Source: an uncultured candidate division Zixibacteria bacterium
GTDB lineage: Bacteria; Zixibacteria; MSB-5A5; GN15; FEB-12
Reading direction: 5' to 3'
Assembly: GCA_963664195.1 (NCBI GenBank)
Contig: OY760907.1
Coordinates: 762,459-826,458, forward strand
DNA: 64,000 nucleotides
The position numbers and the translations under genes were made by a program. The notes below the pieces were generated by a model. That model did no database searches and was not told where the DNA came from. It saw only the letters and a list, made by a program, of their open reading frames with translations. Below, piece after piece: positions 4,919-47,259 of the stretch (position 1 is its first letter; each line of letters opens with the position of its first letter).

Positions 4919-5563
4919 ATGTCTGATAAATACAAAGCCGATGAAGCCGATTTCACACAGTTAGCCGAAATCGCACGAGAAACCCTCATCGGGCGCGTCG
5001 GGATCATCACCCCCGATGGATATCCGAGAGTCGTGCCGATCAATTTCGCTCTCCTCGATGGCCGTATCTACTTCCACGGTGCGCTCTCCGGCGAGAAGTA
5101 CGACGTGTTCGCCACCAACCCCAAGGTCACGATCTCAATAGACATCCCGTACGCCGCGCTCCCATCGTACTGGCAAAGCGAGCAGTACGGCTGCAAAGCC
5201 AATCAATTCTACAAGTCTGTCCTCGTCAAAGGTCGCGGATCTCTCGTGACCGAGGTCGCCGAGAAGACAGCCTCGCTGCAGGCGTTGATGGAAAAGCACC
5301 AACCCGAGGGTCGCTTCACTAAACTCACTCCCGATGAGCCGCTCTACAAAAAAGTCATCGCAGAAACCGGCATCTACCGGATCGACCCGGAACAAATCAC
5401 AGTCAAAACGTCATTCGGGCAGAACATGACCGAGCGCCTTCGTAACAAGATCATCGACCTTCTCGAAGAACGCGACTCTGAAGTCGATCTCAAAACCACC
5501 GAGGAGGTTCGCAAGACGCTCGTAGAAGACTTCGATTATACTGAAGGGAAACATGATGAATAG
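4919..5563 (+). CDS. pyridoxamine 5'-phosphate oxidase-like (FMN-binding split-barrel) family protein
   Basis: ORF 4853-5563. The ATG at 4919 is preceded by AGGAGA. GRVGIITPDGYPRVVPINFALLDGRIYFHGA resembles the PNPOx-like family. The C-terminal ~60 aa are acidic and unassigned. Confidence 0.65.
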   Translation: MSDKYKADEADFTQLAEIARETLIGRVGIITPDGYPRVVPINFALLDGRIYFHGALSGEKYDVFATNPKVTISIDIPYAALPSYWQSEQYGCKANQFYKSVLVKGRGSLVTEVAEKTASLQALMEKHQPEGRFTKLTPDEPLYKKVIAETGIYRIDPEQITVKTSFGQNMTERLRNKIIDLLEERDSEVDLKTTEEVRKTLVEDFDYTEGKHDE

Positions 5564-5942
5564 AAAGCTCATCACTTCCGGCTCACCGTACGAAGAGCCG
5601 ATCGGCTTCTCACGCGCCGTGAGAGTCGGCAATGTCATCTCGGTTGCCGGTACCGGTCCTATCGGTCCCGACGGCAACACGGCCTGTGTCGGTGATGCCT
5701 ACGGTCAGGCGATGCGATGTCTCGAGATCATTAAGAAAGCTATCGAAGACGCAGGCGGCAAAATCGAAAACGTGATTCGTACGCGACAGATGATCACCGA
5801 CATCTCAAAATGGGAAGAAGTCGGTCGCGCTCACGGGAAGTTTTTCTCCGAAATAAGACCGGCCAGCACGATGGTCGAGGTGAAGGGATTGGTGCAACCG
5901 GACTGGATTGTGGAGATCGAGGCAGACTGTGTGATCGACTGA
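5553..5942 (+). CDS. RidA/YjgF/TdcF family protein
   Basis: 129 aa. 'FSRAVRVGNVISVAGTGPIGPDG' and the C-terminal 'VEIEADCVI' fit the endoribonuclease L-PSP/RidA fold family. It overlaps the upstream gene by 11 nt. Confidence 0.85.
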   Translation: MMNRKLITSGSPYEEPIGFSRAVRVGNVISVAGTGPIGPDGNTACVGDAYGQAMRCLEIIKKAIEDAGGKIENVIRTRQMITDISKWEEVGRAHGKFFSEIRPASTMVEVKGLVQPDWIVEIEADCVID

Positions 5943-6120
5943 TACGGTGAAGTAGGCGGGCTACCCAAGCCATTGGCAAACAGTCTATTACGAGCGCGGT
6001 GAATGATTCACACGTTCCCCACATTTAGGAACAGGTAGCCGCTAATCACTTGACAAATCGGGTTTGAAAACGTTCTTTTCAGCTTGATGCCAACCGCCAA
6101 CTCGTCCAAAGGAGCCCCTC

Positions 6121-7351: not shown

Positions 7352-8479
7352 ATGGGCAATGTCGAAGTAGTAGAAGTAGAATCCCGAGCACAGCTCAAGA
7401 AGTTCATCACCTATCCGAACAAACTGTATGCTGGCGACAAGAACTACGTCACCCCGTTAATAATGGAGCGTAAGGAATTCTTTGACACTGCACACAATCC
7501 GTTCTATCGGGTGGCGCGCACCAAGCTGTTTTTGGCGATGCGGGACAACGAAGTAGTCGGTCGTATCGCTACCTGCATCTATTACCGCCACAACGAATAC
7601 CACGAGGAACAGACCGGCTTCTTTGGGTTTTTCGATACGCCGGACGATGAAGAGATTTCGCACAAGCTGCTCAAAGTGGCGATGATTACGCTCAAAAAGG
7701 CTGGCATGGACAAGATGCGCGGCCCGATGAATTTCTCGACCAATCACGAGTGCGGATTCCTCCTCGAGGGATTTGACAGCCCCCCCATGGTCATGATGAC
7801 CTACAACAATCCGTATCAGGTACGTCTCGCGGAATCCTTTGGCTTGAAGAAGGCCATGGACCTGTTGGCGTTCACGATCAACAAGGATCAGGGCATTCCG
7901 GAGCGACTGCAAAACGTGGTCGACAAGGTGCGGAAGCGGACGAAAGTCACGATTCGAAGCCTGAACATGAAGGATTTCGATCATGAGCTTGAACTCGTCC
8001 AGAAGATCTACAACTCCGGCTGGGCCAACAACTGGGGATTCGTACCGATGGATGAAGCGGAGTTTGCTCACCTCGCCAAGAATCTCAAGCAGATTGTTGA
8101 TCCGGACATCGTCTTGATAGCAGAATGCGAAGGCGAACCGGTCGGCTTCTCGCTCGCCCTGCCCAACATTAACCAGGCACTCATCAAACTCAACGGCAGG
8201 CTGTTCCCCACCGGACTCGCCAAACTCCTCTGGCACACAAAGATCAGGAACAAGGTAGACTCGACTCGACTGGTCATTTTCGGTATCGTTCCTCAGTTCC
8301 AGAAACGCGCCATTGATTCTATGCTTTTTATCGAGACCTTCCACCGGGGGGTTGCCAAAGGGTACAACACGGCCGAGCTGTCCTGGATTCTCGAAACAAA
8401 CGAACTCATGTGTCGCTCGGCGGAACAGATGGGCGCCAAACCGTATAAGAAGTATCGTATTGTCGAGATGCCGCTTTAG
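7352..8479 (+). CDS. large GNAT-fold N-acyltransferase family protein
   Basis: 375 aa, starting 4 nt after the upstream stop. The acyl-CoA N-acyltransferase-like core is GEPVGFSLALPNINQAL...VPQFQKRAIDSMLF. The specific function is unknown. Confidence 0.6.
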   Translation: MGNVEVVEVESRAQLKKFITYPNKLYAGDKNYVTPLIMERKEFFDTAHNPFYRVARTKLFLAMRDNEVVGRIATCIYYRHNEYHEEQTGFFGFFDTPDDEEISHKLLKVAMITLKKAGMDKMRGPMNFSTNHECGFLLEGFDSPPMVMMTYNNPYQVRLAESFGLKKAMDLLAFTINKDQGIPERLQNVVDKVRKRTKVTIRSLNMKDFDHELELVQKIYNSGWANNWGFVPMDEAEFAHLAKNLKQIVDPDIVLIAECEGEPVGFSLALPNINQALIKLNGRLFPTGLAKLLWHTKIRNKVDSTRLVIFGIVPQFQKRAIDSMLFIETFHRGVAKGYNTAELSWILETNELMCRSAEQMGAKPYKKYRIVEMPL

Positions 8480-8525
8480 TCGACGGTTCGATTAAACAAA
8501 ACCTCAGCCAGAACGTTCTGTTACT

Positions 8526-9074
8526 ATGCCAATAAGATCGATCTTTTCACGCACTGCGCTCGCCCTGTTGTTTCTCACTATTTTCGCAAGCTGCACCAGC
8601 CGCTATCGCATGGAGCTTTTTGAAATCCGCGGCGAGGAGCAAAGAAAAATCAAGGTCGAAAAGACACAGTATATCAACGGCGGGATTCTCGCCGATCCTA
8701 TGGCGACAGAAAAGGTTGTCAAGGGCAGAGGCAGCTGTATCGTGTTGAACACCGGCGCGCGAGGCGATATGGCTGACACCGACAAGGCGACTCTCGTCGG
8801 CTACGACAAGTATCTCCGTTACATGATCTATATGCAGCTCCCGGAGAACGTCCGGGTGGAAACCTATCCGCTCAACGACCGCTCCTTTGCCCATCTGCTG
8901 GGGGAATACGAACTCCCGGCTGAAGACAAGATGTTTATCTGCACCGGGGGGAGTTTGGTAGTAGACTCAATCCCCAAGAAGCATCTCTACGGCGAGATCA
9001 AGGCAGACTACGAGAATGCCAAAGGCGAGCCGGTCACGTTCCAGGGCAAGTTCCGTGTGAAAGTCGCGCGGTAG
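8526..9074 (+). CDS. hypothetical lipoprotein
   Basis: 182 aa. Signal peptide plus lipobox: MPIRSIFSRTALALLFLTIFASC. Confidence 0.5.
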   Translation: MPIRSIFSRTALALLFLTIFASCTSRYRMELFEIRGEEQRKIKVEKTQYINGGILADPMATEKVVKGRGSCIVLNTGARGDMADTDKATLVGYDKYLRYMIYMQLPENVRVETYPLNDRSFAHLLGEYELPAEDKMFICTGGSLVVDSIPKKHLYGEIKADYENAKGEPVTFQGKFRVKVAR

Positions 9075-9085
9075 AGGTCGAGATT

Positions 9086-9610
9086 CTAGGAACTCTCTCC
9101 CGCCAATTTCTCTCGTACCGCTTTTTTGAAAAGCCCCAGTCCAACGTCATCAAACAGGCAAAACTGAATCCGTTGCACATGTTTGGCCTGTGACTTCCAC
9201 AACCGCGCCGCCTCCACCATAATGTTCGCACACGGTCGGATCGGGAATCGGCCCACTCCCGTACCGAAAGCCGGCAACGCAACCGATTCAACCTTGAGCT
9301 TATCCGCGATATTGAGACAGGCAATGGTCGTCTGCCGGATCAACACATTGTTCGTGTGAAGGTCCTGCCCCATCACCGCACCATGGATGACATACTTAAA
9401 CGGAAGCTGTCCCGCTCCGGTGAAGATTGCCTCGCCGGGCATAACCGGCCCCTTGGCGGTCGCTTCCTTCTCTATTATGTCTCCCCCCCTGGCCTTGATC
9501 GCGCCGGCCACACCTGACCCCATCCAAAAACGATTGTTGGCGGCATTTACGATTGCTTCGGTATCTGTCGCGGTAATATCACCCTGGATAACTTCGAGAA
9601 TACAGGACAT
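9086..9610 (-). CDS. macro domain protein (ADP-ribose binding/hydrolase family)
   Basis: The C-terminal 174 aa of ORF 9086-10066. GDITATDTEAIVNAANNRFWMGSGVAGAIKARGG is the classic macro-domain signature. The ATG at 9610-9608 overlaps the PAP2 stop (TGATG). Confidence 0.85.
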   Translation of the reverse strand: MSCILEVIQGDITATDTEAIVNAANNRFWMGSGVAGAIKARGGDIIEKEATAKGPVMPGEAIFTGAGQLPFKYVIHGAVMGQDLHTNNVLIRQTTIACLNIADKLKVESVALPAFGTGVGRFPIRPCANIMVEAARLWKSQAKHVQRIQFCLFDDVGLGLFKKAVREKLAGESS

Positions 9611-32316: not shown

Positions 32317-33801
32317 TTATGATCTGGAAGCTTCGGCAGTATGCGCCTCGATAGCCCTCTTCAGCAGATCGCATTTCCCTGTAACTTCGCGGGAGGCGTC
32401 AGTCGCTTGTGCTAGAAGCCTCTCGGCCCGCGTCTTCTCTGAAGCGTGGACGGCGGCAACACAATCATTAGCAAACTTGTGAACAGCAGCGTGCGACGAT
32501 TCCGTATCCTTGAACTCAGCCAAGGAACCGTAATCTTCGATTCCGTCGGAGTAGTACCACTTACCGAAACGGCAGTTATGGTGATCGAATGTTTTCCAGG
32601 TAGAGACATCCCCTCCGCCACTGATGATCTTATCCAACTGCTTCATGTAGCGCCCGTGATCTTCTTTGGCCAACTGCAAAATGCCGGTGTTACCGCCGAC
32701 TATCTTGAACTTGCCGACCATTGTGCGCATGTTTTCCGCATTGTGGCTGAGTTGATCGGCAGCGGACTGTTCCGCCCCGGAGGCGTTCTCTCGGGTCACC
32801 GACGCCACATACTCGATATTCTTTGAAATCTGTTCAGCCGCTACCGATTGCTCCTCACTGGCGGTTGCTATCTGTTGGATCATATCCATGACACTCTGAG
32901 ACATGTTCACCACTTCCTGAAGGCTGCCCCCTGCCTGATCGACCAGCTCGCGACCCTTGTCGACCTCGGATACGCCTGACTCCATCGAATCGACCGCTCT
33001 GGAAGTTTCTTTCTGGATACCCTGGATCATGCCGGTAATCTCGCCGGTCGCTTTGCCGGTGCGCTCGGCCAACTTGCGGACCTCATCAGCCACAACGGCA
33101 AAACCACGCCCTTGTTCACCGGCACGGGCGGCCTCAATCGCAGCATTCAGAGCCAGTAAATTCGTCTGGTCAGCGATGTCGTCGATAACGCTGGTTATTT
33201 CGCCGATCTGATCGGCAGACTGTGCCAGCTTGCCGATGGAACTTGCCGACTCACGAACGACCTCGGCTATGCGCTGCATGCCGGATATTGTGTCTGCTAC
33301 TGCCTTACCGCCGACGGTGGCGGTGTCGGAAGCACTTCTCGAGGAATCGGAAGCATCACTGGCATTCCGTGAGGCCTCGACGATAGTGGATGACATTTGC
33401 TCAATGGCCGTAGATATCTGATCAACCTGCCCCGATTGATCCTTGGCTCCCCTGCTCATCTGCTCAGAGGACGCTGCAATCTCGGTCGCGGCAGACACGA
33501 TTTCCCGGGAGTTGTCGGACAGCTCACGAACCATCGTATTCAGATTCTCGGTCATTCGGTTCATCGAGTCCGCCATGTGCCCTTTCGTCTCCAGGGTTGC
33601 GGCAATTGCACGTACCAGAATCCCTATTTCGTCTTTGGCCTCTGTCACGCCAATCTGAATATCAGTTCTGGGCACGTGCCTGGTAAGATCGTTATCAGCG
33701 ATGGCATCCAGGACACTCTCGAATTCGGTGAACTCGTTTGTCATCGATTTCGTAGCTTCCACCACTTGCGATACCGGCCTTACAATGTTCCGGGTGATCA
33801 C
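32317..33801 (-). CDS. methyl-accepting chemotaxis protein, cytoplasmic portion (HAMP + signalling domain + C-terminal CZB)
   Basis: 494 aa, starting at a GTG immediately after an in-frame TGA. HAMP-like '[17 protein letters not shown]', then the MCP hairpin '[38 protein letters not shown]'. The C-terminus carries a full CZB motif (HGRY..CRFGKW..HAAVH). Confidence 0.85.
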
Positions 33802-34750: not shown

Positions 34751-36871
34751 TCAGACGCGGAACTGCGACACCATATTCTTCAGGCTGTCGGCATTTCGAC
34801 TCAGTTCCTCGGAGGCGGCGGCGGACTGCTCTGCGCCCTGTGCTGCCTCCTTGCTGACGGAGGAGATGTGATCGATGTTCCTGGTGATCTGCTCGGCAGC
34901 GACAGCCTGCTCTTCAGAGGCGGTCGCAATCTGCTGGATCATGTCCATGACACGCTGTGACATCTCGACAACCTTGGAGAGATTGTCGCCGGCCTGATCG
35001 GCCAGTTCTCGGCCCTTATCGACTTCCGCGATACCTGCCTCCATCGAGCCTACAGCTTCCTGTGTCTCGTTCTGGATGCCTTTGATCATGCCGGTGATTT
35101 CGCCAGTGGCCTTGCCGGTGCGCTCGGCCAGCTTGCGGACTTCATCAGCAACAACGGCAAAGCCTCTTCCCTGCTCACCGGCACGGGCGGCCTCGATGGC
35201 GGCGTTGAGAGCCAGCAGATTGGTCTGGTCGGCAATGTCATCGATTACTGTGATGATCTCGCCGATCTGGTCGGCAGACTGAGCCAGCTTGCCGATGGAG
35301 TCAGCAGACTCCCTTACCGTGGACGCGATCGTCTGCATTCCTGTAACGGTCTCCCCAACAATCATACCACCGTCAGTAGCAGTGTCAGAGGCGCCCTTGG
35401 AGATTTCATTTGCCTCGGCCGTGTTCTTGGCCTGCTCGGCGATAGTCGCAGACATTTCTTCGACCGCCGCAGCCACCTGACTGACCTGCTGGGCCTGATC
35501 CTGGGCACCCTTTGAGGCCTCCTCGGAAGTGGAGGATATTTGGATGGCCGCAGATACCAGATCTTCGGTGCTGGCATTGATTTGCTGCACCATCTCCGTC
35601 AGGTTGAATACCATGGTCTTGAACGAGTGGCTGAGGGCGTCCTCGTCAGACTTCGGCTCAATCTGCACAGTCAGGTCCTTCGCAGCCACCACCGAGGCGG
35701 CGTCGGCCAGACCCTTCATGTAGTCAATCAGCTTCTGGAATGACTTAGCCAGCGTTCCCACTTCATCGTTTGTCTTTATGTCTATTGACTGCTGAACGTC
35801 ACCCACAGCGATCTTCTCCGCGACTTCGGATATCTTGATAACCGGGCGCACTATAGTACGGGCCAGGAAGAACGCGACTGCGAGAGATATCAACAAACAG
35901 ACAAAACCCAGCGTAACGATAGCGTTTCGGACTTGCGCAACCGGTGCTGTAAACTCGTCGAGGTAACTACCAGCAGCGATGATCCAATCCCAGTCTTTGA
36001 CATACGTGTAGGCCACGATCTTGTCGCGAGGTTCGGTCTCGCCGAGAGCCGTGTTGATCCAGGGGTAGGTGATCCATCCGATTTCGCCGTCAGCAAGCTG
36101 CGGCGCTTTGGCGCATATTTCCTTGATAAAATCGTACTTGCTTATGTTTGAACCCTCACTGGCGGGGTGAACCTGGAGCACGCCGTCTGAGTCCATAGCA
36201 TAAATGTACCCGGTCTCGCCGACTCTCTGGGCAAGAAGACCTGTACGCAAGACTTGTGATTCGGCCAGCTGGGCAATGCCCAAAACACCGACAACATTGT
36301 TTGATCCGTCGCGCAGAGGCTCATAGGCGGTCACATACCACGATCCCAGGATCTGAGCACGACCGTAGAACGGCTGTCCTTTTCCCACGACCTGATCAAA
36401 CACGTCTTGAGAGAGACTGGAACCAACAGCGCGTTCGCCGTCGTCCGACTTTGTAGTCGTGGCGATTCTCACCGCACGTGACCCATCTCTCATGAAAATC
36501 GACGCCATATTGCCCGTCGCACTCTTGATCTGATCGACGAATTCGTGATTGTCGTTCAGTACGACAGCGCCGCCATCGGCTTCATACTGCATCTGTCCGT
36601 TGGACAGACTGATGGAACCGGAGGTGATTTCCTGAAGCAGACTTGACGAAGTGGCCAGATCTGATTTCAGCTTGAATTGAACTTCCTCGGCGTTTACCTG
36701 ACACGTTTTCTGCGCCATTGCGGCCAAGTGGGCCAGATCTGTCTTGGCCAACTCGACCAGGTGTGTCTCCGACTGGGATACGCTGATGAAGGCGACCCCG
36801 GCAATGGATAGCACGAGCACTGAAAAAATCAGTAGCATTATTTTGTGAGTAAGTTTCAGTTGCAGTTTCAT
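34751..36871 (-). CDS. methyl-accepting chemotaxis protein with double-Cache-like periplasmic sensor
   Basis: The ATG at 36871 follows GGAAGG. TM1, a ~280-aa periplasmic domain, TM2 '[17 protein letters not shown]', HAMP '[21 protein letters not shown]', and the MCP signalling domain. Confidence 0.85.
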
Positions 36872-37509
36872 GCCTGCCCTTCCTTTGCTTGACCGAACCA
36901 CGGAGTAAGTTACTGTTTATGAAATATGGTATCTCAGCAGCAAATACGCCAATGTCTCAGCCCCTCTCTATTTCGATTCACTTGTATTGTCGCGTTGCAT
37001 GTCCGCCGTTCCCGTGTGACCACTGACGGCGGAAATATCAATTCCTGATACTTTTGACACGCCTCTTTTGCCCCGGCCCCTCAGGCCCTGCAAGCGCCGT
37101 ATGCTACACGGCATTTCCGATTGTGTGGGCCCATACAATTTGGAATGTGAGATACATAGTTGCTGATCGAGCCCCTTCGCGTATGTGTTCTATTGTCGGT
37201 TGATTGGGAATCGGAATTCACTGATGAAGAGGCGAATTCGCTGTTGGTGTACCGAAAACGAGATTCCAGAGAACCGGAAGGAGAGTCTCAATGAGACTTT
37301 TAGTATGCTGGCTGCACGGCCTCACCAGAGAGACCGGTGCCGAGTGTGACAATTGTCGTTGACTGGCAATCGATTAGTCGGAGAATCAAGCGGAATGGGA
37401 CCGATCCTACGTAACATAGACCGGCTATGTTCAGCGACTGAACATACTCTGCGACCAAATCATACCGGCCAGTAGGTCATCCTGAAATGTGTCCGCAACA
37501 GCAGGCAGA

Positions 37510-40011
37510 CTACTCTTCCTGCCATTGCAGGACCAATCCCTCGTATCTATCGATCAGCGTCTGAGTATCCTCTTTGGAATGGGACTCCGCAAGGATATTG
37601 AAGGAGGCTCTGAGCCTGTCGGGGACAACATACACCCAGCCGCCGTCTTCCTTAATGCGGACACCGTCGACCATCTGTCGTTCCCTGTTTGCGGATTCAG
37701 TTATCAGGTGTCTCATCACCGTTCCTTTCCTGGCCCAGGGGCAGGGGACAGAGGTGGTCTGCCTGATATAGTGCTCGTATTTCTTGCGGAAATCTGCGAC
37801 ATCACGACCGTCTCGGGCGAGCATCTCAAAAATCCTGACCGCTGCAACAATACCGTCGGCTCCTGTCTGGAACCCGGGGAATATGAACCCGCCTCTCGTT
37901 CCCCCTACAAACGAAACACCGCCATCGCGACGGATGTCCATCATCGCCTGATGGTCGCCTCCGACCCGGACAACCTCAACGCCGTGCTCGGCAGCTATCT
38001 CTTCAACGCCCATCGAAGCGCCGATAGGCACTGCGATCCGCGCCGGACGGTGCCCTTTGAGGAATAACTCGGTAACCATCAACAGCAATGTCTGTTCATC
38101 AAGCGGCACTCCCTGACGATCGACCAGAGTTAGTTTCTCGGTAGCTGCGTTGATTCGGATACCGAGGTCGGCATTCAGCGAGCGAACGATAGTCGATAAC
38201 TGCACGATAGCCTGCGCACGTTCTTCATGAGTCACGGAGCATTTGTGCGCCGAGGGATTCGCATTCAATTCCGTCACCGAAATTCCGAGCTTGGTGAACA
38301 GCATCGGGTAGACCTGGGAAGAGGAACCAAAGGCGTAGTCAACGACGGCCTTGAAACCGGCTTTTCTAATGAGGTCCACATCGACCGAGGCTAAAAACTC
38401 GTCCTGATAATCCTCCAGTACCCGCTGCGGATAATCCAGATGACCAATGTCATCAATGGAGGCCCGTTCATAATCCTCGCCAAAATAGTTTCTCTCAAGC
38501 TTTTTGAGTTTGGCCGTCGGCATGTCAAGTCCTGAGCCGTGGAAGAAAATGAAATCGAGTTGACGGTAGTCCTCGGGGTTATGTCGCACGTATATGCCGG
38601 CGTCGTACCGTCCTTTGGAAAGCGCGTATCTGACCACCGGGACAGGCATGGTCTCAAGGTCAGAGACATGAACGCCAGCCGCAAGGAGTCCGGAGATGAG
38701 AGAACGCCGCAGAAGACGAGTGACATCGGAGGCATCGCGGCTGGTGACCACTGCCGACCCGGCACCCAGTGCCGCGCCGAAAGCTGCCCCCAGACGCACG
38801 CCCATTTCAGGTGTGATCTCTGTCATCGCAAGTCCGGATATCTTGGAGTCGGTGCAGAGCTCGCGGTTCCATTTCTCGCCCCAGACCAGCGAGGCAGATA
38901 CGATTGCCCCGTCGTCGACCGTCTTGCTCGGCCATATTTTGCAGTTGGCTTTAACAGTGGCAAAGTTACCGATTGTGCAGTCATCAGAAACAATAGCGTT
39001 ATCCAGCAACTGAACATCGTTACCCAGTCGTGCCCCGGCGCAAACAATCGCGCTTGAGAAACGACAGCCGTTGCCAACGGTAGTGTCCGCCCAGAGTACG
39101 GTATCACGGAGATCGCACTCCCTGCCGATTCGTGAGCGGGCGCCAATTGAACAATTGTGAAGATGGGTGCCGTCGTCAATACGGACGTCGTCACCGAGAA
39201 TCACAGTACCGGTAAACTCGACACCTTCGCCGACTTGTAGATTGTTTCCCTGATGAACGGTCCCTTCTCCTATGTTGGCCTTCCTCACCTTCAGATCAAG
39301 ATGAAGCTGTTCTTCGAAGATGTGTCGGTGGACACGGTAATACTCGTCGACATTGCCGACGTCCTTCCAGTAGCCATCCATAATCTTGCCGCAGAGCTTC
39401 ATCCCTTTTGCCAGCATCAACGGATACAAGTCTTGGGAGAAGTCAAAATTGGTGTGCTCGGGAATCAACCGGGCCGCTTCCGGCTCCAGAATATAGATTC
39501 CGGTGTTGATCGTATCGGAAAACGCCTCACCCCAGGTCGGTTTTTCGAGGAAGCGTACGATACGCCCGGTTTCGTCGGTGATCACGATGCCGTAGGCAAT
39601 CGGATTCTCGATGCGCGTGAGCAGAATGGTGGCATCCGCCTCTTTCGATTTGTGCCACTCGATAGCTTCTTTGAGATCAAAATCAGTTATGACATCACCG
39701 GAGATAATCAGCACAGGTTCATCCGGTTCACCCATAGCGTAGCGGACAGCGCCGGCGGTACCGTAATCATCGTCAGGCTGGGCGTAGGCCATGGAGATTC
39801 CGAATTTCGCCCCGTCAAGGAAGTAGCTGCGGATGATCTCCGGCTGGAAATACAATAGCGACGTGACATCCGTAAGCCCACTCCCGGCCAACAGCCCGAC
39901 CACATGTTCCATCATGGGGATATTTCCGATGGGAACCATCGGTTTGGGAGTGTTGATTGTCAGGGGGCGAAGCCTGGTACCAAAGCCGCCGGCCATCACG
40001 ATCGCTTTCAC
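37510..40011 (-). CDS. sugar-phosphate nucleotidyltransferase (NTP_transferase + LbH) fused to a degenerate phosphohexomutase-like domain
   Basis: 833 aa. The N-terminus has MAGGFGTRLRPLTINTPKPMVP, followed by hexapeptide repeats. The C-terminal ~440 aa align to PGM/PMM but carry YVRHNP (not TASHNP), NAATEK (not DGDGDR) and GGTRGG (not GGExSG). Confidence 0.8.
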   Translation of the reverse strand: MKAIVMAGGFGTRLRPLTINTPKPMVPIGNIPMMEHVVGLLAGSGLTDVTSLLYFQPEIIRSYFLDGAKFGISMAYAQPDDDYGTAGAVRYAMGEPDEPVLIISGDVITDFDLKEAIEWHKSKEADATILLTRIENPIAYGIVITDETGRIVRFLEKPTWGEAFSDTINTGIYILEPEAARLIPEHTNFDFSQDLYPLMLAKGMKLCGKIMDGYWKDVGNVDEYYRVHRHIFEEQLHLDLKVRKANIGEGTVHQGNNLQVGEGVEFTGTVILGDDVRIDDGTHLHNCSIGARSRIGRECDLRDTVLWADTTVGNGCRFSSAIVCAGARLGNDVQLLDNAIVSDDCTIGNFATVKANCKIWPSKTVDDGAIVSASLVWGEKWNRELCTDSKISGLAMTEITPEMGVRLGAAFGAALGAGSAVVTSRDASDVTRLLRRSLISGLLAAGVHVSDLETMPVPVVRYALSKGRYDAGIYVRHNPEDYRQLDFIFFHGSGLDMPTAKLKKLERNYFGEDYERASIDDIGHLDYPQRVLEDYQDEFLASVDVDLIRKAGFKAVVDYAFGSSSQVYPMLFTKLGISVTELNANPSAHKCSVTHEERAQAIVQLSTIVRSLNADLGIRINAATEKLTLVDRQGVPLDEQTLLLMVTELFLKGHRPARIAVPIGASMGVEEIAAEHGVEVVRVGGDHQAMMDIRRDGGVSFVGGTRGGFIFPGFQTGADGIVAAVRIFEMLARDGRDVADFRKKYEHYIRQTTSVPCPWARKGTVMRHLITESANRERQMVDGVRIKEDGGWVYVVPDRLRASFNILAESHSKEDTQTLIDRYEGLVLQWQEE

Positions 40012-40038: not shown

Positions 40039-40707
40039 TCACACGGTCAGGAAACCTGCCGCACTCAGTCGACTCGCTATATCACTAAATGTCTCATACG
40101 AGTTGTAGGGAATGTCATTGTCCCGACAATACACTTCGAGGTCTTTCTTGGCAAACACGAGATCCGCCTCCCTGGCGGCACAGGCGTCGGAGTAGCCGTC
40201 GCCGACAAACACCATGATCGTACCTTCGGTGAACACCTTGCGATATTCGCGAATTCGTTCTCCCTTGCAACTGCCGCAGCTTTTGCAGTCATGGTTGGTA
40301 TAGGGAAACTCGATACGAAGACCGTCATTCTCCAGATATCCCTTGTTGCAGACTACTTTTATGAATCCCAACCCGCTGCGTCCGAGGATTTGATGGATAT
40401 ACAGATCCAGACCCTCGGATACTATTGTCAGCGGTACGCCCGCTCCTCGACACCGCCATTCAAACTCTAAGAACGTCTCATCTATGGTGAACTGTTCCAA
40501 AAATTCGAGAATCTCAACCGACGAGGCGTGCACCATTTCAGCTTCTTTGACCAGCACCTCCCGGCTTGAGAGTATGCCGGCCTTCCAATCGGGAAGCAGC
40601 TCATCGTTACGACCACCTGAGAAATGGTGAAACATATTGTAGCCCACATCGTGGGCGGCGACTGTTCCGTCAAAGTCGCAGAAGACGGCTATTTTGTTGG
40701 TACTCAT
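40039..40707 (-). CDS. HAD-superfamily phosphatase, MtnX/PSPase-like subfamily
   Basis: The ATG at 40707 gives MSTNKIAVFCDFDGT (DxDxT motif I). 'CKSCGSCKG' and 'VGDGYSDACAAREADLVFAK' parallel B. subtilis MtnX as I recall it. Confidence 0.75.
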   Translation of the reverse strand: MSTNKIAVFCDFDGTVAAHDVGYNMFHHFSGGRNDELLPDWKAGILSSREVLVKEAEMVHASSVEILEFLEQFTIDETFLEFEWRCRGAGVPLTIVSEGLDLYIHQILGRSGLGFIKVVCNKGYLENDGLRIEFPYTNHDCKSCGSCKGERIREYRKVFTEGTIMVFVGDGYSDACAAREADLVFAKKDLEVYCRDNDIPYNSYETFSDIASRLSAAGFLTV

Positions 40708-40879
40708 CAAACAGATTTCGTCATTTAGTTGTTTCGGATCACACAGGAGCAATATACGCGTTGCCTGCCCCAGAGCATCGTAAAAACCGGGCTGTTGTCA
40801 TCAAAAATCGGAAACAACTGTCGTTTTCCGGGGATGTCGCAGTTGTATTAGTCGATTCCTGACACTCTGATAGCACTAT

Positions 40880-43426: not shown

Positions 43427-44686
43427 TTATTTTTTCGCCTTCACCACTCTCTTGGCAGTCTTCTTCGGAGCTGCCTTCTTGGGCGTTACCTTTTTCGGCG
43501 CTGCCTTCTTGGGCGTTACCTTTTTAGGCGCTGCCTTCTTGGTCGCCGGTTTCTTAGCAGCAGGTTTACGAGCAGCTCTCTTGACCTTGCTGGTTCCCAC
43601 TGCGGTGGTCTTCCAACCGTATTTGGCGATGAACTCCTCGGTCATACGGCGGGCTTCCGGATCGGTGTACTGGACCGGCGGGGACTTCTTGAAGTACGAC
43701 GACGGCTCGATCAACGCACCAGAGAGATGATTGTCAAGAGCCAGCTTGCAACAACGCACGGCATCGATCACAACACCCGCAGAGTTCGGGCTGTCCCAGA
43801 CTTCAAGCTTCAGTTCCAGATTCAGCGGCACATTGCCAAAGGTCGTGCCTTCCATACGAATATACGCCCACTTGCGGTCATCGAGCCACTCGACATAGTC
43901 GGAGGGTCCGATGTGAATGTTCTTCGGATCAATGTCGAAATCGAGCTGTGAAGTCACAGAGTTGGTCTTGGATATCTTCTTTGATTCCAGGCGGGAGCGC
44001 TCGAGCATGTTCAGGAAGTCGGTGTTACCGCCGACGTTCAACTGGCTGGTGCGCTCAAGTTTGACACCGCGCTCAAGGAACAGGCGAGTAAGGACACGAT
44101 GCGAGATCGTGGCGCCGACCTGAGACTTGATATCATCGCCGATAACCGGCAGACCTTTTTCTTTGAATCGCTTCTGCCAGTATGCTTCGCGGGCGATAAA
44201 GACCGGAATGCAGTTCACGAGGCCGCAGCCCGCATCGAGAATCTGCTCAACATACCACTTCGTGGCCTCTTCGGAACCAACCGGAAGATAGTTCACCACG
44301 ACATCAGTCTTGGTGTCCTTGAGCAGCTTCACGATATCAACCGTGTCGCCCGGAGCCTTCTCGATGACCTGTGAAAGATAGTAGCCGAGACCGTCGTGGG
44401 TCATACCGCGCTGAACCGTAACGCCGGATTTCGGGACCTTGCAGAACTTGTACGTATTGTTCGGCTTCGTGTAGATGGCTTCGGAGAGATCCTTGCCGAC
44501 TTTGTTCTTGTCGATGTCGATGGCAGCGGAGAACTCGATGTCACGGATGTGGTATCCGCCGAGGTTGACGTGCATCAGGCCCGGGACCTTATCTTCGTCT
44601 TTGGCCTTCTTGTAGAACTCGACTCCCTGTACCAACGAGGAGGCACAGTTGCCGACGCCGATAATGGCGACTCTCACTTTACTCAT
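43427..44686 (-). CDS. ino1: myo-inositol-1-phosphate synthase with Lys/Ala/Pro-rich C-terminal tail
   Basis: 419 aa. '[22 protein letters not shown]', '[11 protein letters not shown]' and '[14 protein letters not shown]' are typical of the bacterial/archaeal Ino1 family. The last 54 aa are [53 protein letters not shown]. Confidence 0.9.
43471..43542 (-). repeat. 30-bp tandem repeat (2.4 copies) inside the ino1 3' end
   Basis: ctgccttcttgggcgttacctttttcggcg / ctgccttcttgggcgttacctttttaggcg / ctgccttcttgg. It encodes the [10 protein letters not shown] units on the minus strand. Confidence 0.9.
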
Positions 44687-45642: not shown

Positions 45643-47259
45643 CTAAAAGATGTGATGTGTGAAGGAAAGCGAGAGGCCATACCCATCGCTGTTTTCCTCG
45701 AACATCCGCTCTGCGAGCACTTCACGGTCGGTCTTCCACCAGTCCAGATCGACAACCAACGTTGTCGGGACAGAGAGCCGGTACTCCACTTCTGCGCCAA
45801 AACTCAGGGTCCAGTAGTGCAGATCCGGCGCGGCTCCTTCGTCTGGTGCCGGTTCGGGTTCCTCTCGGTCGCCGTCCTGCCTGTAGTAGTTACCGTAGAA
45901 GCGAACGCTGGTGCGCTCGTCATGGAAGTACTCTGCCGAGGCTGAGAGCCAGCCTCGCCAGAGGTCCTGGTAATCCACCTCAGTGGTAACCTCATGATTC
46001 ATTTCTCTGAGATTCTGGGCACCTACATACCAGTCAAGACGTGCACCTGCTTCCAATTGCCATCGTAGATTAACCGGCTTGGCGTAGCTGACTGCACAGG
46101 TTGCATAGGGTTCTCTATAGACGCGTTTTGTGTACTGAGCGGACAGGAATGTATCGACATACACAACTGTATCAACGTTCCCGGTGCCGTCCATATGACG
46201 GAGTATGTCGCTCCCGATGCTCCTTTGAGTCACACTTCTCTGGCTGCTGGTGTGGACGATTGTCACTCCGACGCCCCCGCTCACCGTAAGCCCGAACTGA
46301 CGACTATCGTTGCCGGGGAAGTAATCCCACACATCCTGAATCAAATACTGTGCGACTGCCTCCGACTCAGCCATCACCCCTTCCTCCCTCAGGAAACCGA
46401 CAATGCTCTCCAACGCCTCCATTCGATGCAAACGCGAATCGACTGCATGTGTCAGCCGGTAGCGATACACAAGGTCGGTCAATTGCATCATTTCGTTTCT
46501 GTCCGGTTCACGGAGGAGAAGGCCGGCATCTCGCAGTTCACCGATCATGTTCATTGCCATCGCCGCGAAACGTCCCTCGTATTTCCTTCCCCAGCCCGCC
46601 GTACATTCCACCTTCAGGTTGTGACCCTTTTGATCACCGTCCGTATCCTCATAGAGTGCTTGACTACGTTCCCGGACTGATCCGTCAAAACGGTTTTCTG
46701 ACGAATACCTCTTGCGGAATCGATCCTCACCAGGCGACTGGCTGTAGTAGTAGGAGTAGTTGAAGTGGATTGCGCCGAAGACGTCCCCTGCGACATACTC
46801 CTTCACCCCTATAGCGGGACTGAACCTCACAATGTATTGGAACCTTTCAACGCTTATACTATCCTCGGTGATGCGTCCAAGCGTGTCTTGTGCAGCCTCA
46901 TGCCGATCTGATTCCTGATTATCGATTCGAGTAGTCACCAGCAACGAGACGTCGAAGTCCCGATCGACAGAGTAGTGATGATACTTCCAATGGGAGAGCA
47001 GTGAAGCATTCTGCTGATCGACGTCCTGCTCTCCATCAAAGAAATCGTATGCGAGCGGATCGCGCTCGTAGCCGGATTCCTTATGGCTTTGACCGGAGAA
47101 ATCCAGGTCGCCTTCCACTCTCCACTCATAATCAGTCAGCTTCTCCGGTAAGTAACTCTCTACTCTGAAACCCGTTGTATCAGTAGCTATAGCTGAGAGT
47201 GAGAGCGCGAAAACAGCAGCAAGCGTAAGTGCAAGACGTTCGATAGCAGTTTGAAGCAT
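45643..47259 (-). CDS. hypothetical large outer-membrane beta-barrel protein
   Basis: 538 aa. Signal ...LSLSAIATD. Alternating strand pattern rich in Y/D/R. The C-terminus ...LSLSFTHHIF ends in an aromatic residue. Confidence 0.6.
   Translation of the reverse strand: MLQTAIERLALTLAAVFALSLSAIATDTTGFRVESYLPEKLTDYEWRVEGDLDFSGQSHKESGYERDPLAYDFFDGEQDVDQQNASLLSHWKYHHYSVDRDFDVSLLVTTRIDNQESDRHEAAQDTLGRITEDSISVERFQYIVRFSPAIGVKEYVAGDVFGAIHFNYSYYYSQSPGEDRFRKRYSSENRFDGSVRERSQALYEDTDGDQKGHNLKVECTAGWGRKYEGRFAAMAMNMIGELRDAGLLLREPDRNEMMQLTDLVYRYRLTHAVDSRLHRMEALESIVGFLREEGVMAESEAVAQYLIQDVWDYFPGNDSRQFGLTVSGGVGVTIVHTSSQRSVTQRSIGSDILRHMDGTGNVDTVVYVDTFLSAQYTKRVYREPYATCAVSYAKPVNLRWQLEAGARLDWYVGAQNLREMNHEVTTEVDYQDLWRGWLSASAEYFHDERTSVRFYGNYYRQDGDREEPEPAPDEGAAPDLHYWTLSFGAEVEYRLSVPTTLVVDLDWWKTDREVLAERMFEENSDGYGLSLSFTHHIF

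Follow-up and report, generated by a model that had tools for sequence, protein, structure and literature searches.

A sugar-nucleotide transferase of Zixibacteria carries a phosphohexomutase-like half that is predicted to be catalytically dead

Does a protein that is annotated as a bifunctional enzyme of sugar-nucleotide synthesis still have both of its activities? The question is raised by a gene in a stretch of 64,000 nucleotides, here called the window, of contig OY760907.1 (positions 762,459 to 826,458, assembly GCA_963664195.1) from an uncultured Zixibacteria bacterium. The gene (37510..40011; all coordinates in the window refer to features on the minus strand) encodes a protein of 833 amino acid residues in which a nucleotidyltransferase, a left-handed beta-helix (LbH) and a part resembling phosphoglucomutase (PGM) follow each other. 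JGI names this fusion 'mannose-1-phosphate guanylyltransferase/phosphomannomutase', i.e. a bifunctional ManC/ManB, and NCBI labels it 'sugar phosphate nucleotidyltransferase'. KEGG K16881, with a name like that of JGI, and the CDD model 'MPG1_transferase' presumably describe the same fusion. The architecture is therefore already catalogued; what is new is that the mutase half is, judged from its sequence, catalytically dead, a pseudoenzyme module on a sugar-nucleotide enzyme. The whole is best explained by a nucleoside diphosphate (NDP)-hexose pyrophosphorylase that would carry a non-catalytic, PGM-derived module, a reading to which we give a probability of about 0.5.

The reading frame, taken from the list of open reading frames (ORFs), starts with GTG, which is preceded at 8 nt by the ribosome-binding site AAGGA, and ends with the stop codon at 37510-37512. 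Pfam assigned NTP_transferase to residues 2-231, LbH to residues 251-366 and PGM_PMM_I, II and III to residues 389-745. The LbH region of hexapeptide repeats (38914..39261) matched LbH_EIF2B (3.5e-19; 69 bits, cut-off 54) and Hexapep (2.5e-12) and appears as a ladder of beta-strands in the AlphaFold2 model. The model had a mean predicted local distance difference test (pLDDT) score of 82.5, with values mostly between 85 and 95 in the C-terminal half. No solved structure spanning both halves was found when all PDB sequences were searched with phmmer. Pfam, NCBIfam, phmmer and Foldseek together defined residues 389-833 (37513..38847) as a four-domain phosphohexomutase-like module that is without the catalytic residues. 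Full-length homologues have 797-843 residues in the close set and about 790-860 among distant cluster representatives.

The first-pass annotation of this DNA had proposed that the C-terminal half has the phosphohexomutase fold and that its four catalytic motifs are lost. The fold was borne out. The best NCBIfam model for this half was TIGR03990 (archaeal GlmM, residues 388-824, 255 bits, cut-off 439). With phmmer, residues 391-820 aligned end to end with solved PGM and phosphomannomutase (PMM) enzymes, namely 9du5 of Thermococcus kodakarensis (1e-46) and 1wqa of Pyrococcus horikoshii (3e-44), and further with the phosphopentomutase 9ix8 (2e-33) and with 2f7l of Sulfolobus tokodaii (8e-30). In the predicted structure, the C-terminal half superposed on 9du5 with a template modelling (TM) score of 0.90 over 452 columns at about 25% identity (Foldseek). 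A score this high over 452 columns indicates that all four PGM domains are present in the model, including domain IV, although Pfam PGM_PMM_IV gave no match in the 833-residue protein. E-values of 1e-30 to 1e-46 together with the superposition on PGM structures make it clear that the likeness is not due to chance. The archaeal enzymes (9du5, 1wqa, TIGR03990) and the fusion thus have the four-domain fold in common over an alignment of about 430 residues, but the archaeal proteins are free-standing and have the catalytic residues, whereas the domain of the fusion sits behind the transferase and has lost them.

The columns of the catalytic motifs were then inspected in the alignments to the solved PGMs, and all four loops of the superfamily were found replaced. 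The phosphoserine loop ITASHNP reads IYVRHNP, with Arg476 at the position of the serine, exactly at the codon that had been named (38584..38586). The Mg2+ loop DGDADR reads NAATEK (residues 621 to 626, 38134..38151), again as had been described; only Glu625, at the place of the third aspartate, and Lys626, instead of the arginine, remain, so that two of the three metal-binding aspartates are lost. The sugar loop GGEENGG, the archaeal form of GEx[S/N]G, reads VGGTRGG (702-708, with GGTRGG at 703-708, 37888..37905), in agreement with the replacement that had been claimed. For the phosphate loop of domain IV, RASGTEP is replaced by VPDRLRA (V796-A802, 37606..37626). Here the loss held in either register, whereas the register itself did not, since the 'RAS' of the RASFNIL previously read as this loop lies 4 residues downstream of the motif aligned by HMMER. 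Two further active-site residues are changed in the alignments. Ser392 (38836..38838) stands for the conserved arginine in the N-terminal G-x-R-G of active mutases ('isgla' for 'vrgia'), and Asp486 (38554..38556), at least 90% conserved in the close clade, stands for the conserved lysine after the SHNP loop (..YNGIK). An intact serine or DxDxDR could have been displaced elsewhere, but a regular-expression search of the whole 833-residue protein found neither, and no SHxP, DxDxD, GEx[SN]G or RxSxTxP. As the four motif loops and two further active-site residues are replaced and no canonical motif occurs elsewhere, the C-terminal domain can very probably no longer carry out phosphoryl transfer.

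To see how far this state extends, the protein was compared by phmmer with 1.84 billion cluster representatives (50% identity), of which the best 150 matches, with 30-43% identity, were analysed. Most of them were colinear with the fusion over about residues 1-830, and about a dozen shorter ones look like fragments. The TASHNP serine in its context was present in none of the 137 full-length sequences of the family alignment (the query and 136 representatives of at least 760 residues), nor in the fusions of 83 related loci. Most members have a serine loop of the type h-H-x-R-[KRQ]-S-P and a metal loop of the type D-x-G-x-E-[KR]. When 220 family sequences were counted, position 476 was Arg in 151 (69%), Lys in 15 and Ser in 16; the 16 serines were never followed by H-N-P and never paired with an intact D-x-D-x-D-R loop. 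A canonical serine loop together with the metal loop was found in 0 of the 220 sequences, which come from many phyla, and the bifunctionality that the JGI name implies therefore does not agree with the sequences, all 220 of which appear to be without the mutase catalytic apparatus. Position 625 was Glu in 179 of the 220 and position 797 was Pro in 211, and position 477 varied between R, K, Q, L and others. Arg at the serine position is thus, in these alignments, a hallmark of the family, and the predicted loss of the mutase, far from being particular to the Zixibacteria protein, is ancestral in a very large family of fusions.

A scan of one genome per species detected the fusion in at least 600 genomes, and the clusters at 50% identity that contain it number at least 150; it was full-length and colinear in most of 80 genomic loci. 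The genome scan found it in metagenome-assembled genomes (MAGs) of the Ignavibacteriota/Bacteroidota type, in Desulfuromonadota (including the cultured Geomonas), Elusimicrobiota, Gemmatimonadota, NC10, Margulisiibacteriota, Spirochaetia, Caldiserica, Actinomycetota, Eremiobacterota, WOR-3 and Anaerolineae; to these, the names of the clusters add Calditrichota, Gaiellaceae, Clostridia and one bin labelled as archaeal. A few members, the representatives P0139 and P0162 and also those noted in L086 and L087, keep DGDADR or DEDGDR and a sugar loop of the GGxE type and have no catalytic serine. Their motifs suggest stages on the way to inactivation. A fragment labelled Thermoprotei archaeon belongs to the P0162 cluster, and an aminotransferase gene follows the P0162-cluster gene.

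Did the enzyme once have both activities, and is its mutase half now a neutral relic that is being lost? The progressive erosion across the family, with some loops kept in P0139 and P0162 and deletions in others, would fit this idea. Against it, the length and the four-domain fold are kept in all those clusters and species genomes, and the close relatives show a strong constraint. In the close set of 120 homologues (62-74% identity, mostly named Zixibacteria/GN15, from a word-indexed search) Arg476, His477 and Pro479 were each present in 120 of 120, Asn621 in 119, Glu625 in 120 and Lys626 in 118. In the sugar loop, Gly703, Gly704, Gly707 and Gly708 were invariant, Thr705 was found in 118 and Arg706 in 110, with Lys in 9 more; in the phosphate loop Pro797 and Asp798 were found in 119 each and Arg799 in 114. 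The mean identity to the query was 73% for the transferase, 54% for LbH and 64% for the PGM-like part, which is above that of LbH. Of the columns in the four loops, 16 of 26 were conserved in at least 95% of the close clade, compared to 135 of 430 in the rest of the PGM-like domain (Fisher p=0.002). Since the residues that took over in the loops hardly vary within the Zixibacteria clade, the domain is being selected and not decaying, as had been suspected from the single sequence, and by this pattern the PGM-like domain is under purifying selection. We consider a neutral relic hardly credible.

A bifunctional enzyme with a non-canonical chemistry, for instance with His477 as the nucleophile, would rescue the guanylyltransferase/phosphomannomutase label. 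Besides the JGI name, the invariance of His477 in the close clade speaks for it. However, His477 is not conserved across the family, and no serine, DxDxD metal site, sugar loop or phosphate loop is left to work with it. The only paper that we found to discuss the fusion architecture describes SCO1388 of Streptomyces coelicolor, an 831-residue 'ManC/ManB', with the same architecture, and its authors assumed SCO1388 to be bifunctional (PMC5982138). When SCO1388 was disrupted, singly or in double mutants, GDP-mannose synthesis proved to depend little on it and no GDP-mannose phenotype was added (PMC5982138), which argues against a mutase of this kind. From the described architecture and the neighbouring locus tag Sco1389, SCO1388 is likely a member of the fusion family. 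In the literature searched, which included a 2024 review of prokaryotic alpha-glucan enzymes, the dead mutase half was nowhere noted.

The genes next to the fusion bear on the same point. Context counts were drawn from 87 related loci (83 for the HAD and inositol counts given below). In five unrelated MAGs, a stand-alone canonical PGM/PMM gene lies directly downstream of the fusion (L029, L035, L037, L042 and L073, at about 7500-9300), and these stand-alone PGMs carry TASHNP, DGD[AG]DR and RxSGTE. Separate canonical PGMs next door also argue against a bifunctional fusion, which we regard as very improbable. In the preferred reading, that of a pyrophosphorylase with a non-catalytic module, the hexose-1-phosphate would be supplied by a separate, canonical mutase. 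Alternatively, the dead domain could capture or channel the substrate, by binding hexose-1-phosphate or docking the stand-alone mutase, and pass the sugar phosphate on to the transferase. The downstream PGM genes and the descent of the domain from a hexose-phosphate binder are consistent with this. Against channelling, the loops with which true mutases grip their substrate (the one for the sugar and the distal one for the phosphate) are replaced or deleted, and the PGM adjacency is rare (5 of 87 loci), so that we think it improbable. In the window, no second PGM gene was found in the 64 kb.

The N-terminal half, in contrast to the mutase half, has kept its motifs. The sugar-1-phosphate nucleotidyltransferase domain (residues 2-231, 39319..40008) matched Pfam PF00483 with E=2.5e-49 and 168.5 bits (cut-off 21.2). 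Its nucleotide-binding signature GGFGTRLRPLTINTPKP (residues 8-24, 39940..39990) is intact, with G9, G11, R13, P16, T18, P22 and K23 invariant in a family alignment of 46 sequences, and GxGxRLxPLx5PK is kept in all family representatives with a complete N-terminus. E156-K157-P158 (39538..39546), here in the form LEKP, corresponds to the (F/V)EKP sugar-phosphate motif that was defined for this transferase class in PMC5982138 and is invariant across the family. Asp106 and Asp217 of the transferase are present and invariant in the close homologues and in the wider family. The NTP-transferase and LbH domains therefore look as complete as had been stated, and it is quite probable from these motifs that this half is active.

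The closest solved relatives of the N-terminal half were 8x7s, a cyanobacterial UTP-glucose-1-phosphate uridylyltransferase, and the GDP-mannose pyrophosphorylases of Arabidopsis (7x8j) and human (7d72), with E-values of about 1e-44 to 1e-49. GMPPB (7d72), VTC1 (7x8j) and the CugP-type tlr0611 (8x7s) have the NTP_transferase and LbH architecture and the motifs in common with residues 1-370, but these proteins end after the LbH domain, where the fusion continues into the PGM-like half. All NCBIfam scores stayed under the equivalog cut-offs: 233 of 440 bits for man1P_GTase_Rv, 130 of 424.9 for glgC (TIGR02091) and 140 of 320 for rmlA_long. The protein is thus not a GlgC by sequence, as it does not reach the equivalog level of TIGR02091.

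What could the dead domain be kept for? In the mechanism that we propose, the mutase would have been inactivated early in the history of the family, when the phosphoserine was changed to Arg and two of the three metal aspartates were lost, and the dead domain would have been kept as a non-catalytic module with a remodelled cleft made of Arg476, Lys626, Arg706, Arg799, Glu625 and Asp798. This cleft may bind a phosphorylated sugar and thereby tune the transferase. GlgC is allosterically controlled by glycolytic intermediates, catalytically inactive GMPPA regulates GMPPB, and the eIF2B subunits are built from the transferase fold; tuning of the fusion would be similar. We tentatively favour such an allosteric, ligand-binding sensor, somewhat short of an even chance, because the cleft residues are unusually conserved in the clade and rich in Arg and Lys, the ancestor bound hexose phosphates and the enzyme class is classically regulated.

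The comparison to known systems shows where the analogies hold. GMPPA and eIF2B chains were among the PDB matches of the N-terminal half. In GMPPA-GMPPB and in eIF2B gamma/epsilon, as would be the case in the fusion, a relative of a pathway enzyme has lost its activity and is retained in the enzyme complex as a regulator or structural component; there, however, the dead unit is a paralogue of the transferase on a separate chain, whereas here it is the preceding enzyme of the pathway, the mutase, in cis. GlgC is a possible functional analogue, since it is an NTP_transferase with LbH that feeds glycogen synthase and the fusion lies in GlgA/GH57 clusters of several phyla, but the fusion differs by its low TIGR02091 score, its extra domain of 445 residues and the missing glycogen genes in the window. 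Vertebrate PGM5 (aciculin) is a PGM-family protein that is reported to be without mutase activity and to have a structural role. Its structures were among the distant fold matches; it is eukaryotic, free-standing, of the PGM1 subgroup and found in an unrelated context.

The link to glycogen came from the related loci. Genes of GlgA (GT5), GH57 or GalT-like type lie within 5 kb of the fusion in 18 of the 87 loci, and these are spread over at least five phyla, namely Desulfuromonadota and Clostridia, and Margulisiibacteriota, Caldiserica and WOR-3 with one locus each. A Clostridia MAG has the order CBM53, GlgA, GalT-like, GlgA, fusion, GH57 branching enzyme and DUF4912 (L085, 1445-11006), and in Geobacteraceae loci (L079, L076, L067, L062 and others) the fusion is found with GH57, GalT-like and GlgA genes. 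At the level of the family, we see an even chance that the product is NDP-glucose for alpha-glucan (glycogen) synthesis; for the Zixibacteria gene itself this product is possible, with the odds leaning against it. More speculatively, the dead domain might sense a hexose phosphate, for example Glc-6-P or Glc-1,6-bisphosphate, and gate the synthesis of NDP-glucose allosterically, which would make the family a hitherto unnoticed control point of glycogen and other alpha-glucans, independent of GlgC, in many phyla. We hold this to be rather doubtful.

If the domain were such a hexose-phosphate sensor, the control point would span Zixibacteria, Ignavibacteriota, Desulfuromonadota, Clostridia, Actinomycetota, Elusimicrobiota and others. 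A sensor would also show clearly, for bacteria, how the enzyme of one pathway step is recycled in cis to regulate the next. The fusion may explain the supply and control of sugar nucleotides for glycogen synthesis in many uncultured phyla. Metabolic reconstructions that use the bifunctional label may credit genomes with a mutase they lack, and at least one experimental paper reasoned from bifunctionality (PMC5982138). The Arg in place of the phosphoserine would be a simple diagnostic for the re-annotation of the family.

Several observations weigh against the reading of a glucan-directed, regulated pyrophosphorylase. Since none of the NCBIfam equivalog cut-offs was reached, the sugar and the nucleotide are not assignable by sequence, and the top matches point to different products, as the best NCBIfam model is a mycobacterial GDP-mannose enzyme and the best solved structure a UDP-glucose enzyme. 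The linkage to glycogen genes is seen in about one fifth of the loci, and PTS EIIA-2 (14 loci), CDP-alcohol phosphatidyltransferase (5) and HAD genes (5) also recur beside the fusion. No glycogen gene was found in the 64-kb window, and in the literature searched we found no biochemical characterisation of any member of the family. Finally, family-wide the conservation of the cleft loops does not exceed that of the remaining domain (none of their 26 columns reaches 95%), and in many distant members the sugar loop varies or has been deleted. These last two findings fit better to a scaffold or to clade-specific ligands than to one universal ligand.

A dead PGM domain of purely architectural function, the main rival reading, would serve for oligomerisation or as a rigid scaffold and bind no small ligand, with Arg476 filling the vacated Mg2+/phosphoserine site against Asp/Asn621 and Glu625. 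Beyond the variable loops, this is favoured by the character of the C-terminal positions that are conserved throughout the family, which are mostly Gly and Pro with a few of buried type (G446, G783, Y535, G634, D719, G617 and P797), and by the closest solved PGMs, 9du5 and 1wqa, which were deposited with four chains each. In active mutases the Ser side chain lies against three Asp carboxylates, and an Arg at this place would contact Glu625. Against a scaffold, the loops exceed the other parts of the domain in conservation within the close clade, and they include basic residues of surface type (R706, R799 and K626) for which a mere scaffold would have no use. Arg476 covaried weakly or non-significantly with acidic residues at positions 621, 625 and 798; the association of R476 with E/D625 had an odds ratio of 2.6 (p=0.03), and these signals, uncorrected for phylogeny, were set aside as evidence. 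A scaffold is possible, although we lean away from it, and the ligand-binding module remains our tentatively preferred reading.

A PTS EIIA-2 gene (PtsN-like) follows the fusion directly at its 3' side in 14 loci (L007, L010, L012, L014-L017, L020, L023, L030, L034, L045, L053 and L058, at about 7500-8100), mostly in MAGs of the Ignavibacteria/Bacteroidota type. It could be a regulatory partner or reflect mere synteny of the lineage. In five actinobacterial loci (L084, L069, L073, L075 and L078), a CDP-alcohol phosphatidyltransferase gene lies directly upstream, and in L084 this gene (5453-6004) overlaps the fusion by 4 nt. The order mirrors the adjacent locus tags Sco1389 and SCO1388, so that SCO1388 resembles the actinobacterial members in its neighbour as well as in its architecture.

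In the window, a HAD-IB phosphatase gene of the MtnX-like/PHOSPHO type (40039..40752) ends 27 nt upstream of the fusion, at the distance and with the MtnX-like character at the subfamily level (TIGR01489, 102.8 bits, cut-off 81.55) that the first-pass annotation had given. A terminator-like site was not found between the two genes, and the HAD-IB gene is a probable operon partner of the fusion in the window. Its core motifs are intact (DFDGT at 40663-40677 and GDGYSD at 40186-40203), and it also matched Pfam Put_Phosphatase (PHOSPHO1/2-type). It was not accepted as MtnX itself, since it passes only the subfamily model and scored 109 against 292 bits and 91 against 303 bits with the equivalog models. 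The pairing of HAD and fusion recurs in three Zixibacteria and two Ignavibacteria loci (L001-L005), and a HAD fragment is found in L008. With these 6 of 83 loci, all from Zixibacteria or Ignavibacteria, the HAD gene is not a universal partner of the fusion. Between the core motifs of the phosphatase, a cysteine cluster CKSCGSC was observed at 40267-40287.

Upstream of the HAD gene, the window contains genes for an S41 protease, a thymidylate kinase and an inositol-3-phosphate synthase (43427..44686, TIGR03450 over residues 4-353), the last being four genes away from the fusion. It had been suggested that the fusion forms a nucleotide-sugar or a nucleotide-polyol, the latter of which would make it an enzyme like inositol-phosphate cytidylyltransferase that works with the synthase and the HAD phosphatase. 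The synthase is on the same strand as the fusion, the block recurs in L001, and the actinobacterial members adjoin a CDP-alcohol phosphatidyltransferase. The latter pairing resembles that of IPCT/DIPPS. The polyol suggestion found no support, as the thymidylate kinase and the S41 protease, which are housekeeping genes, lie between the synthase and the fusion. In L003 the 6 kb upstream of the fusion contain no synthase gene, and none was found in the other loci examined. The EKP motif and the best matches belong to hexose-1-phosphate enzymes. Moreover, the actinobacterial neighbour is of the type that is proven to be a cardiolipin synthase in S. coelicolor, where Sco1389 depends on CDP-diacylglycerol (PMC4966929). 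A nucleotide-polyol enzyme is therefore very unlikely.

The locus L001 (GCA_035529075.1) has the gene order of the window, with TetR, inositol-3-phosphate synthase, Tmk, S41 protease, further genes, HAD, fusion and AsnRS, and its fusion protein has 65% identity. From this order, the MAG protein labelled 'Acidobacteriota' probably belongs to a Zixibacteria genome that was binned or named wrongly. The inositol-3-phosphate synthase in the window ends in a tail of about 60 residues (43430-43621) that is rich in Lys, Ala and Pro and resembles a histone H1 tail; the only other NCBIfam match was to the K-rich tail of a ValRS model. Further upstream, a 538-residue ORF (45643-47259) had no Pfam match at E<=0.001. 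On the downstream side, close to the fusion, two genes encode methyl-accepting chemotaxis proteins (32317-33801 and 34751-36901), one of which has a C-terminal CZB zinc-binding domain.

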